From contig OY970170.1 in the NCBI GenBank assembly GCA_963706795.1, forward strand, positions 120,001 to 152,000: DNA of 32,000 bases, written 5' to 3'. Below are positions 602 through 3,587 of this stretch, piece after piece. The number at the start of each line of letters is the position of its first letter. The first letter of the stretch is position 1. This DNA comes from Candidatus Saccharimonadota bacterium. GTDB taxonomy: Bacteria > Patescibacteriota > Gracilibacteria > BD1-5 > UBA2023. Under the pieces are notes generated by a model. That model worked only from the letters and a program-made list of their open reading frames with translations. It had not been told where the DNA came from and searched no databases. A program made the position numbers and the translations under genes.

Positions 602-3587
602 CCTTTACAACGATAGAGAATAATTTATTTGGTACAAAAATCTCTCGCACAATTACTTTTCCTTCCGTCCATTTTTTGATTTCTTCGCTTGAGTATGCAG
701 TTGCTGCGACTTCTTCTTGGGCAACGCCATTGAGGAATTCAAAGGTCGCACGGAGTTTACCATTGACCTGGATGGCGATGGTTACGTCATCATCGATAAG
801 CATAAATTCGTCGTATTCTGGCCACGGTGCGTGCTGGATAGATTCGCTTGAGCTATGACCGATCACATGCCAGAGTTCTTCGGCAATGTGTGGAGCAAAT
901 GGATGGAGGAGCTTGAGATAGGATTCTTGCCACTCAGTTCGGAATTCTAGATCAGTCGGCACTCCTTCATTCATGAGGATATTGAGCGCTGTGATCGCGG
1001 TATTAAACTTAAAAGCTGGGATATCTTCTCCGACTTTTTTGATGGTTTTGTTGAGGAGCTTCATCGCCTTCATATCATCTGCGGCAGCCTTTGGAGACTC
1101 AGTAAATGAAGCATAAATTCGCTCAAGAAGTCGTTCTGCACCGGCAATTGCGTCGATATTCCAAGGCGATGGATCACGAAAATCTGAGAGTGAGAGCATA
1201 AAGATACGGAATGTATCCGTTCCATATTTTTCGACATCGCGATCTGGATTGACGACATTTCCTTTGGATTTGGACATCTTGTTCCCGTCTGGCCCGAGGA
1301 TGAGACCTGGCGAGAGGAGTTTCGCAAATGGCTCTTCGTTTGGAACCATTCAGATATCAAAAAGAACTTTATGCCAAAATCGTGCATAGAGGAGATGGAG
1401 AACCGCGTGCTCCGCCCCACCAACATACTGATCAACCGATCCCCAGTATTCGGCAACTTCTTTACCGACGAGAGCTTCGGTATTTTTTGGATCCATGAAG
1501 CGGAGATAGTACCAGCATGATCCGCCCCACTGTGGCATCGTGTTCGTCTCACGTTTTCCGGCAAGATTGGATGCAACTTGTACCTGCACGAACGAGTCTA
1601 CGGTCGCAAGTGGCGAGTTTCCATCCCCTGCTGGTTCGTAGCGCTCTACCGCTGGAAGCTCGAGCGGGAGTTTGTAGTCACAGATGATCTTGGTATAGAG
1701 TCCGTCGTGGATTTTGGAGAATTCCTTACCATCAATCATGAGATAATCACCATCATCACGTCCATCAACACTCGCGCCAGCAAGACCTACAGCAAAGTTC
1801 GGAAGTCCTGCCACATCCTTTGGATCAAGATGAATAAGCGGAATTGGCTCACCCCAGTAACGCTGACGAGAGAATAGCCAGTCGCGGAGTTTGTAATTCA
1901 CTTTTTTCTTTCCGAATCCTTCTTGTTCGGCTTTTTCAGTCATTTTGAGACGAGCATCAGCACACGTGAATAGATTAAATTCTCCAGAATTTATCAAAGC
2001 ACCTTCATCTGTGAATATCTCTGCCTTTTTTTCTAAAAGCTCCATCATGTGCAAATGATGCCTTTTAAAATGAGCATTCGAGGTAATTTGCTCTTTCGTC
2101 CACCATTCGATTGAGTATGGCATTTCATCTTCTTTATGCTCAATCTCAAAGCCGTTCAGACTTGCTAATTTTATATGGAATGCATCATCCGGATCTTTGC
2201 AATTCGTCGCCTTTCGCTCCTTAAATCCATGTCCAATAAGTGTTCCTATATATTCAATAGAAGCAAAATCCGTGCATCAAGTTTCTTCGATTGTTTCTCT
2301 TTTTGCAGCATCCATAGAGGTTTCACCAGCCTCAATTCCGCCACCAATGAATCCATACTCTCAATTTTGCCATGCCATTACCGCAAACTTTTCCTCAGTT
2401 GAGTGCTCTAGGATAATCGTTGCACAGTGCTTATTTCGAGTTGGGAAATCAGCCCGAGGTGCATCTTTACCACTTAAAACCATATAGCGCGCCACAACCT
2501 GTTTTATTTGAAGTCCAAATTTCTTCGCAAAAGCAAAATCTCGCTCATCATGTGCGGCAACTCCCATCACTGCACCGGTTCCGTATGATCCGAGTACATA
2601 ATCCCCGATCCATACAGGAACTTGCTCACCATTAAATGGATTGATGACGTATGATCCAGTGAACACTCCCGTTTTTTCCTTCCCATCATTTTGGCGATCC
2701 TGGTCAGATTTTGATTTGGATGCGGTGATATAGGCTTCACACTCGGCTGCGTGTTCTGGAGTGATAAAATCATTCACGTTATCATGATCTGGAGCAATCA
2801 CGACCCAGCCCATTCCATAGACGGTATCAACGCGGGTTGTGTAGACAGAAAGTGACTTGCTTGTATCATCGGATTTCACGAGAGAGAACTCTACCCCTTC
2901 ACTCTTTCCGATCCAGTTTCGCTGCATTTCTTTGATTCCTTCTGGCCACTGAAGAGTATCCACGTCGGCAAGGAGGCGATCTGCGTAGTCGGTGATCTTA
3001 AGAACCCACTGGCGGAGTTTGCGGCGCTCTACGACCGTTCCACAGCGGTCACAGGTGTTGTCAGCGAGGACTTCCTCATTGGCGAGTCCGGTTTTGCAGT
3101 TTGGACAGTAGTTGATCGGGAGATCTTGCTCATAGGCGAGTCCGCGCTCAAAGAGCTTGAGGAAAATCCACTGCGTCCAGCGGTAGTATTCTGGATCAGT
3201 TGTATCGATCTCACGATCCCAGTCATATGAGAGTCCGAGTGATTGTATCTGACGTTTGAAGGTCGCGATATTCTGCGCAGTTGTAATTGCAGGATGTGTA
3301 CCCGTCTTGATGGCGTAGTTTTCAGCAGGAAGTCCGAATGCATCCCAACCCATTGGATGGAGCACATTAAAATTGTTGGCACGCAAAAAGCGTGAGAGAA
3401 CATCGGTTGCGATATATCCCTTCGGATGCCCTACATGGAGACCTGCTCCAGATGGATATGGGAACATGTCGAGGACATATGCCTTTTTAGGCGCTTCACC
3501 AACAAAGGGTGGATTTTTGGCGGCGAAGGTTTTGTTTGCGAGCCAGAATGACTGCCATTTGGATTCGATATCGCGTGGTGAGTACAT
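594..3587 (-). CDS. leuS: Leucyl-tRNA synthetase, 997 aa, with 3 in-frame UGA(Gly) codons and an inserted Nudix domain
   Basis: Track ORFs 2361..3587, 1350..2123 and 594..1349 share one frame and are joined by TGA at 2361-2363, 2277-2279 and 1350-1352. Motifs seen: MYSPRDIESKWQ, HVGH, the CP1 editing motif [31 protein letters not shown] and KMSKSKGN. It stops on TAA at 594-596. Confidence 0.95.
2010..2492 (-). other. Nudix hydrolase domain inserted within the LeuRS reading frame
   Basis: About 160 extra residues lie between …FGLQIKQVV and …EGALINSGEFN. They contain the Nudix box GGGIEAGETSMDAAKRETIEET-G-C (2274-2345), whose last Gly is encoded by TGA at 2277-2279. Confidence 0.7.

Follow-up and report, generated by a model that had tools for sequence, protein, structure and literature searches.

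A putative Nudix pyrophosphohydrolase carried as an exchangeable cassette in the CP1 editing domain of a code-25 leucyl-tRNA synthetase

As a rule, the aminoacyl-tRNA synthetases of bacteria are regarded as housekeeping enzymes of fixed make-up. The subject of this report is a leuS gene, encoding leucyl-tRNA synthetase (LeuRS), whose product carries a predicted Nudix hydrolase domain in a loop of its CP1 editing domain. The gene lies in a stretch of 32,000 nt (the window; positions below are counted from its first nucleotide) of Candidatus Saccharimonadota bacterium (assembly GCA_963706795.1, contig OY970170.1, positions 120,001 to 152,000). On the host side, its closest described counterparts are the bacterial-type LeuRS enzymes (TIGR00396; Thermus thermophilus 1H3N and 2BTE; Escherichia coli 4AQ7), with which it shares full-length homology and the catalytic and editing motifs. 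In contrast to these solved enzymes, the window protein has a Nudix domain of ~155 amino acids (aa) in place of a 10-residue CP1 loop, and it is without the leucine-specific domain. On the guest side, the insert resembles the Nudix Ap(n)A hydrolases and RppH (Aquifex 3I7U; Mycobacterium tuberculosis Rv2985, 9CXX; E. coli RppH, 4S2X) in fold and in its Nudix box, with a Foldseek probability of 1.0 for the model of a homologous insert. These enzymes are free-standing, however, and the insert falls below their family cut-offs and is not a member of those equivalogs. Its best match, both by profile (E 9.8e-10, nearly full length) and by structure (E 1.4e-9, template-modelling (TM) scores 0.68/0.73), is the Enterococcus faecalis MutT/Nudix protein 2AZW, a structural-genomics deposit with no function in its name and 22% identity, which therefore gives no substrate clue.

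A class I synthetase carrying an unrelated small-enzyme domain has a precedent in the isoleucyl-tRNA synthetases (IleRS) with an N-acetyltransferase domain (NCBIfam NF040702), although both host and guest are different there and the window protein reaches 55 bits against a cut-off of 1999. Inteins and homing elements are likewise present or absent, or differ in allele, at one sharply bounded site in a conserved essential gene. Unlike inteins, the window protein lacks a Hint or splicing domain (its Pfam matches include neither a Hint nor an intein family), its insertion site is a surface loop and not a catalytic motif, and the Nudix guest is a conserved enzyme that would stay in the mature protein. 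In a 2026 survey of domain insertions (PMC13114784), the LeuRS editing domain figures solely as a guest and in no instance as a host. A full-text literature search, provisional given its incomplete coverage, found no publication on LeuRS or any other synthetase with a Nudix domain, and the AARS Online catalogue of synthetase domains makes no mention of Nudix. The original view that such a LeuRS is not known to be described agrees with the literature found; the protein is not unique, however: the insertion is widespread, and many insert-bearing LeuRS in the databases already carry a precomputed PF00293 label, yet are named 'leucine--tRNA ligase' only.

The Nudix insert and its LeuRS host

The leuS gene occupies 594..3587 on the minus strand and encodes a bacterial-type LeuRS of 997 aa under genetic code 25, with a TAA stop at 594-596. 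Its Nudix cassette covers ~155 aa (aa 368-522; 2022..2486, minus), and a Pfam search places the NUDIX domain (PF00293) at aa 400-506 (2070..2390, minus). The gathering score is 21.1; the full-length protein reaches 38.3 bits and the isolated insert 42.3 bits (E 9e-11). The Nudix box, GGIEAGETSMDAAKRETIEETGC, lies at aa 416-438 (2274..2342, minus) and matches the pattern G-x5-E-x7-R-E-U-x-E-E-x-G-U: every charged and glycine position is present, and the two 'U' positions are Thr and Cys, not Ile, Leu or Val. A hidden Markov model built from LeuRS-embedded Nudix modules finds exactly one copy in the window, at 2028..2492 (134.9 bits), and comparison of the insert with 29 such modules by hhalign gives a probability of 99.9% (E 8.7e-36). 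A discrete, in-frame Nudix domain with a complete signature had been predicted from the letters alone, and the Pfam score on the 997-aa product and the pattern match bear this out. The span first given for it, 2010-2492 (aa 366-526), does hold the Nudix domain and is refined here to aa 368-522.

The insert had been placed between the end of CP1 and the return of the catalytic core; the alignments instead put it inside CP1. The PF13603 editing domain is split into an N-terminal three-quarters at aa 223-366 (2490..2921, minus; model positions 1-141 of 185) and a C-terminal quarter at aa 523-563 (1899..2021, minus; model 142-184 when the insert is removed), after which the protein returns to the catalytic core at KVNYKLRDW. 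With the insert in place, PF13603 scores 183.7 bits; once aa 368-522 are deleted, the match becomes contiguous over model positions 1-184 of 185 and rises to 189.2 bits. Against T. thermophilus LeuRS, query residues 2-367 align to 4-364 and residues 523-596 to 375-448, and from this break in the alignment it follows that ~155 residues stand in for the 10-residue loop 365-374 of that enzyme. On sequence evidence, then, the Nudix domain is nested within the CP1 editing domain.

A continuous 997-aa reading requires a sense meaning for three in-frame TGA codons, and the unbroken frame that had been predicted exists only under code 25; under table 11 the gene is interrupted into three open reading frames (ORFs; 2361..3587, 1350..2123 and 594..1349). 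Two of the three codons are within the Nudix insert. The first (aa 409; 2361..2363, minus) is in the strand before the Nudix box, where the closest inserts read 'SNGE' and the homologues' column holds Gly, or Trp if translated with code 4. The second (aa 437; 2277..2279, minus) is the conserved Gly of the box motif 'EETG', and the third (aa 746; 1350..1352, minus) falls in the LeuRS motif 'FDIGMVP', for which the relatives' consensus is 'FDIGVVP'. Because all three sit at Gly positions of the homologues, the source organism is assigned code 25 (UGA=Gly), as used by Gracilibacteria and Absconditabacteria. In the protein collection of the public genome record (contig of 1,267,896 bp, NCBI/ENA), a 408-aa N-terminal LeuRS fragment is present and the 997-aa product is absent; the public gene calls appear to have used the standard code, splitting leuS.

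These breaks, two of which lie in the insert, and the 408-aa public fragment are what a chimeric assembly or a stop-broken pseudogene could point to. Such an artefact is effectively refuted by the placement of the TGA codons at conserved Gly positions and the in-frame TGA codons used by other window genes (e.g. the downstream GNAT gene), by a separately built Logan contig, and by the recurrence of the architecture in hundreds of assemblies, including contigs of 1.1-1.3 Mb. The Logan contig (L086, run ERR12037365, 5963 bp) is 100% identical to window positions 1057..7019 and covers both insert junctions, which answers the earlier concern about a chimera; given this identity and the recurrence at the same site in many unrelated assemblies, a mis-join is excluded for practical purposes.

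The host itself looks functional in leucylation and editing, because its HIGH, KMSKS, TTRxDT and AHDxRD motifs are intact: the HIGH-type motif HVGH is at aa 51-54 (3426..3437), KMSKS at aa 770-774 (1266..1280), the threonine-rich editing motif TTRVDT at aa 250-255 (2823..2840) and the editing motif AHDERD at aa 345-350 (2538..2555). The 997-aa protein scores 942.5 bits with TIGR00396 (leuS_bact; cut-off 548.4), and T. thermophilus LeuRS (1h3n) matches it with E 1.3e-200 (phmmer).

For the fold of the insert, AlphaFold models of homologues were used. The isolated insert of a relative (P0023), 30% identical to the query insert, is modelled with a predicted local distance difference test (pLDDT) of 95.5 and a predicted TM-score (pTM) of 0.89, and all its Foldseek matches are Nudix enzymes (2azw, NudI, CDP-Chase, MutT1/Rv2985, the Ap4A hydrolase 3i7u, RppH and NUDT15). 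The full-length LeuRS of the cultured Absconditicoccus praedator (P0059) gives pLDDT 90.1 and pTM 0.80, with 87-95 in the Nudix stretch, and superposes on solved LeuRS with target-normalised TM-scores of 0.85-0.87; the extra Nudix domain is in none of the solved LeuRS structures compared (target lengths 762-876). In these models the insert forms a discrete Nudix fold, and strands ahead of the Nudix box, as originally predicted, are found there too. Together with the 99.9% family match, the homologue models support a predicted alpha/beta/alpha Nudix fold for the query insert.

Among the 29 aligned LeuRS-embedded modules, three Glu residues never vary, that of 'RE' and the pair of 'EE' (aa 432, 435 and 436 in the query), and conservation is at least 90% for the Glu of G-x5-E, one Lys, one Trp and one His. 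As far as residues can tell, such conservation speaks for an enzyme that has stayed active and not for a decayed spacer. Since the catalytic Glu residues are invariant, the query domain is probably an active pyrophosphohydrolase.

Two further features of the host stand apart from the insert. The leucine-specific domain is absent at aa 765-774 (1266..1295, minus), where 'GPDGN' runs directly into KMSKS ('GPDGNKMSKS'); residues 581-637 of T. thermophilus LeuRS occupy this site, and most relatives retain a segment of ~35 aa there. Mycoplasma mobile LeuRS has a 'GKDG' tetrapeptide at this site (PMC3643597). The catalytic core also has ~41 extra aa compared with T. thermophilus LeuRS (aa 597-637; 1677..1799, minus), in or near the region where some relatives hold a second Nudix or other inserts of ~100-125 aa.

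A family tied to synthetases and exchanged as a cassette

The window LeuRS is one member of a large, unnamed family that spans the Candidate Phyla Radiation (CPR) and that is present in the databases but appears to be undescribed. Among the 120 best LeuRS matches, the spacing from AHDxRD to YKLRDW falls into two classes, ~70 or ~218 residues, and about 40 of these 120 closest LeuRS share with the window protein an extra ~145 aa at this CP1 site, A. praedator LeuRS among them and others on contigs of 0.7-1.3 Mb. In many database copies the TGA codons have been wrongly rendered as Trp. When the insert by itself was used in a word-indexed homology search, no matches were returned, and this divergent Nudix family was reached only via full-length LeuRS matches and a profile. 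The profile, made from 29 inserts and searched against 1.84 billion cluster representatives, recovers 780 representatives at E<=1e-10; LeuRS sequence is also present in 97 of the 150 best-matching ones. A genome scan with the full protein found the module in 12 of 80 loci, the rest being mostly ordinary LeuRS. Carrier genomes are labelled Saccharibacteria, Peribacteria, Gracilibacteria or 'Patescibacteria group' in GTDB, and Absconditabacteria carriers also appear in the profile search. A single LeuRS can have one to three embedded modules at several different loops; three proteins (P0121, P0122 and P0133) have three, with two in tandem just before the 'WPESIKE.QRNWIGKSEG' CP1 entry and one at the CP1 loop.

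Outside LeuRS, the same family turns up next to or inside other synthetases. A free-standing Nudix protein of 161 aa (P0194) ends 2 nt before the start of an insert-free leuS on three contigs, another (P0189) lies directly upstream of a leuS that has an embedded NUDIX as well, and a third (P0199) is upstream of thrS. A prolyl-tRNA synthetase (ProRS; P0260) carries the module between its anticodon-binding and C-terminal domains. There are exceptions: a 1318-aa Peptidase_M17 protein (P0213) combines two GNAT and two Nudix domains, and one free-standing Nudix protein (P0246) has no synthetase nearby. Across the CPR, then, one Nudix family is tied to aminoacyl-tRNA synthetases. Because fusion and tight adjacency involve three different synthetases (LeuRS, threonyl-tRNA synthetase (ThrRS) and ProRS), a working partnership can be argued; in the manner of a natural "Rosetta stone", fusion combined with operon linkage to leuS and thrS speaks for a Nudix hydrolase that works with synthetases.

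At the CP1 site, the module behaves as a cassette. A neighbour-joining tree computed on 797 conserved alignment columns that exclude the inserts shows carriers scattered among non-carriers, with even sister sequences differing; in the clade of the window protein, no other member has the insert. Short unrelated fillers take up the site in the window protein's nearest relatives. One of them (P0001) is 91% identical to the window LeuRS over the conserved columns; in its contig (L085), flanks of 81-93% identity surround a 176-nt filler that replaces window positions 1947..2516 in blastn alignments. The other, a syntenic GTDB genome (Deming_bin.574, L002) with 80-85% DNA identity to the window, is non-homologous over window 1896..2518. 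The segment without DNA homology to the closest relatives thus comprises the cassette and its immediate flanks (1947..2516, minus). The P0001 filler aligns loosely to the Nudix-box helix and might be a Nudix remnant.

Insert identity hardly follows that of the remaining LeuRS (r=0.24), and LeuRS backbones that are 95-97% identical over the conserved columns can have Nudix inserts only 26-33% identical in protein. In four syntenic loci with the gene order AA_kinase, DUF5684, leuS, TP_methylase, DNA identity is 90-99% everywhere but in the ~500-nt Nudix segment, where it is 40-59%; one of the four is without the segment altogether. DNA identity falls sharply exactly at the cassette edges. The CP1-site Nudix behaves as an exchangeable cassette, in that near-identical leuS backbones hold non-orthologous alleles or none. 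Vertical inheritance of the insert is not supported, and the simplest reading would be that recombination through the conserved flanks has replaced and removed the cassette repeatedly.

Other insertion sites and neighbouring genes

Nudix is not the only guest of these synthetases. Related LeuRS have at least four recurrent insertion hot spots (P0012, P0024, P0029, P0045, P0065 and P0080). Near the start of CP1, relatives hold a serine alpha/beta-hydrolase (Ser_hydrolase), GNAT, Ham1-like or PD-(D/E)XK domain; the catalytic core of some has a second Nudix, the region near KMSKS of others a Ham1, and some hot-spot inserts have no Pfam match.

In the window, leuS is followed by a gene for a RimJ/RimL-like GNAT acetyltransferase of 192 aa under code 25 (23..601, minus; PF13302 Acetyltransf_3, 58.4 bits), whose ATG overlaps the leuS stop by 8 nt (ATGCGTAA) and which is probably co-transcribed with it. 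Its completeness requires read-through of a TGA as Gly at 146-148, and the Pfam match is shortened otherwise. No homology was detectable between this downstream GNAT and the GNAT domains embedded in other LeuRS. Just upstream of leuS, 3683..4036 (minus) encodes a small membrane protein resembling type IV secretion system (T4SS) pilin/TrbC; PF18895 matches the identical upstream gene in L086 and its counterpart in L085, and the order S6, SSB, S18, pilin, leuS is kept in relatives.

Elsewhere in the window, a 1043-aa code-25 ORF (28495..31626, minus) contains ten in-frame TGA codons and the Gly-rich stretch RGRSGGGGR. A tRNA-Asn (GTT) at 15309..15383 on the plus strand is the sole RNA gene detected across the window. 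A tRNA with the UCA anticodon that would read the reassigned codon was not found within the 32 kb, and the window-wide RNA search found no RNA elements close to the Nudix insert.

Proposed function, rival explanations and meaning

The reading that we favour, and hold to be somewhat better than even, is that of a working code-25 LeuRS from a Gracilibacteria-related Patescibacterium whose CP1 loop hosts a probably active, synthetase-linked Nudix pyrophosphohydrolase. LeuRS aminoacylation and editing would carry on unchanged. The Nudix domain would hydrolyse a nucleoside-diphosphate-linked by-product common to all synthetases, the likeliest substrates being dinucleoside polyphosphates such as Ap4A or Ap3A formed from the aminoacyl-adenylate and ATP or ADP, and would thereby keep the dinucleotide level low at the site of synthesis. 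These substrates are favoured because of the adenylate chemistry and the by-products that all synthetases have in common. Ap4A is made by synthetases and cleaved by Nudix enzymes, RppH/NudH and NUDT2 among them. The role in Ap4A turnover that had first been speculated on would gain indirect support from the homologous Nudix genes just upstream of leuS and thrS and from the module inside a ProRS. Fusion may ensure that the domain is expressed along with an essential gene in a genome poor in regulation, and cassettes would be exchanged by homologous recombination via the highly conserved LeuRS flanks.

Several points weigh against this reading. The Nudix substrate is one that we infer entirely. 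No named Nudix subfamily is matched at a score anywhere near its cut-off, and Foldseek does not separate the subfamilies. The modelled structures belong to homologues whose inserts share 30% and 23% identity with that of the query, and the tree is a rough neighbour-joining one in which many database sequences, mistranslated with TGA=Trp, were masked. The Peptidase_M17 fusion and the free-standing Nudix away from synthetases mean that the synthetase link is strong but not exclusive. Fast allele replacement and frequent empty alleles, moreover, fit a conflict-driven or dispensable role better than a housekeeping one.

As to subfamily, the NCBIfam models matched most often are RppH (15 of the 29 modules) and YtkD (11 of 29); both are weak matches and weak pointers to a substrate class. 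RppH models (NF001936 and related) score 22.6-27.1 bits against 118, with a best E of 4.3e-10 among the 29 modules, and YtkD (TIGR02705) 26.7-30.4 bits against a cut-off of 154.4. The MutT 8-oxo-dGTPase (TIGR00586 / NF008044) is at ~20 bits against 98-148, and membership in NudI, NudC or NudE is likewise rejected, with scores far below the cut-offs.

Several other roles have been considered. The multi-enzyme hot spots and the turnover of alleles keep alive an explanation to which we give a minor share of belief, namely that the LeuRS-fused cassettes form a conflict or immunity module, guarding translation from nucleotide toxins, antibiotics or phage and host signals, with turnover as the trace of an arms race. 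Divergent Nudix alleles, or empty ones, in near-identical backbones would suit it, as would the presence of several unrelated detoxification-type enzyme families at four or more LeuRS hot spots, the GNAT gene overlapping the leuS stop and a match of 17 of the 29 modules to the PADLOC-DB candidate PDC-S07. That match is weak, however (23.8 bits for the first module, best E 2.5e-9), and probably reflects just a shared Nudix box; the loci examined have no defence-island context, no particular toxin or substrate is pointed to, the known aminoacyl-nucleotide inhibitors directed at LeuRS are without a pyrophosphate bond for a Nudix enzyme to cleave, and the conserved operon linkage to leuS and thrS suits a metabolic partnership equally well. 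A little less credible still is a house-cleaning role, in which the Nudix domain sanitises scavenged nucleotide pools and LeuRS is merely a tolerant, highly expressed scaffold with no mechanistic link. It gains from the ITPase-like Ham1 domains that are also inserted in LeuRS, from the modules in the Peptidase_M17 protein and in free-standing form away from synthetases, from the frequent loss, which implies dispensability, and from NudI, MutT1 and NUDT15 among the Foldseek neighbours; the repeated association with three synthetases by fusion and by leuS/thrS adjacency argues the other way, and so does the share of top family representatives in LeuRS (97 of 150), which is unlike a random scaffold.

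We regard it as improbable that the domain is an RppH-like pyrophosphohydrolase or decapping enzyme acting on RNA 5' ends and held beside LeuRS-bound tRNA or mRNA. RppH and YtkD, the latter an RNA deprotection pyrophosphohydrolase, do lead the NCBIfam matches and RppH structures recur among the Foldseek matches, but the scores are 20-30 bits against cut-offs of 116-154 and mature tRNA has a 5' monophosphate after RNase P; E. coli RppH hydrolyses Ap(n)A too, so these matches do not separate this idea from the dinucleotide one. A broader reading is possible, with our confidence in it well short of even: that CPR LeuRS, and to a lesser degree other synthetases, may serve as a platform for interchangeable cassettes (Nudix, Ham1, GNAT, alpha/beta-hydrolase and PD-(D/E)XK) at a few permissive loops, with CP1 kept hypervariable by recombination and diversifying selection. 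If so, the diversity could, for example, answer to nucleotide toxins, phage factors or nucleotide pools that differ from host to host, and the locus would be a previously unrecognised kind of accessory-function locus in an essential translation gene.

Returning to the favoured reading of a synthetase-linked pyrophosphohydrolase, its most interesting aspects are the synthetase link and the cassette-like turnover, both of which go beyond the original prediction. The arrangement is a three-level nesting, an unrelated enzyme domain within the LeuRS proofreading domain, which is itself an inserted domain. If the substrate is Ap4A or a related compound, the fusion would offer a direct way to test how cells handle synthetase-made dinucleotides. 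The exchange of cassettes between near-identical strains suggests that a fast-evolving accessory function can reside in an essential gene, and it bears on how functions are gained and lost in the genome-reduced, host-dependent bacteria of the CPR.

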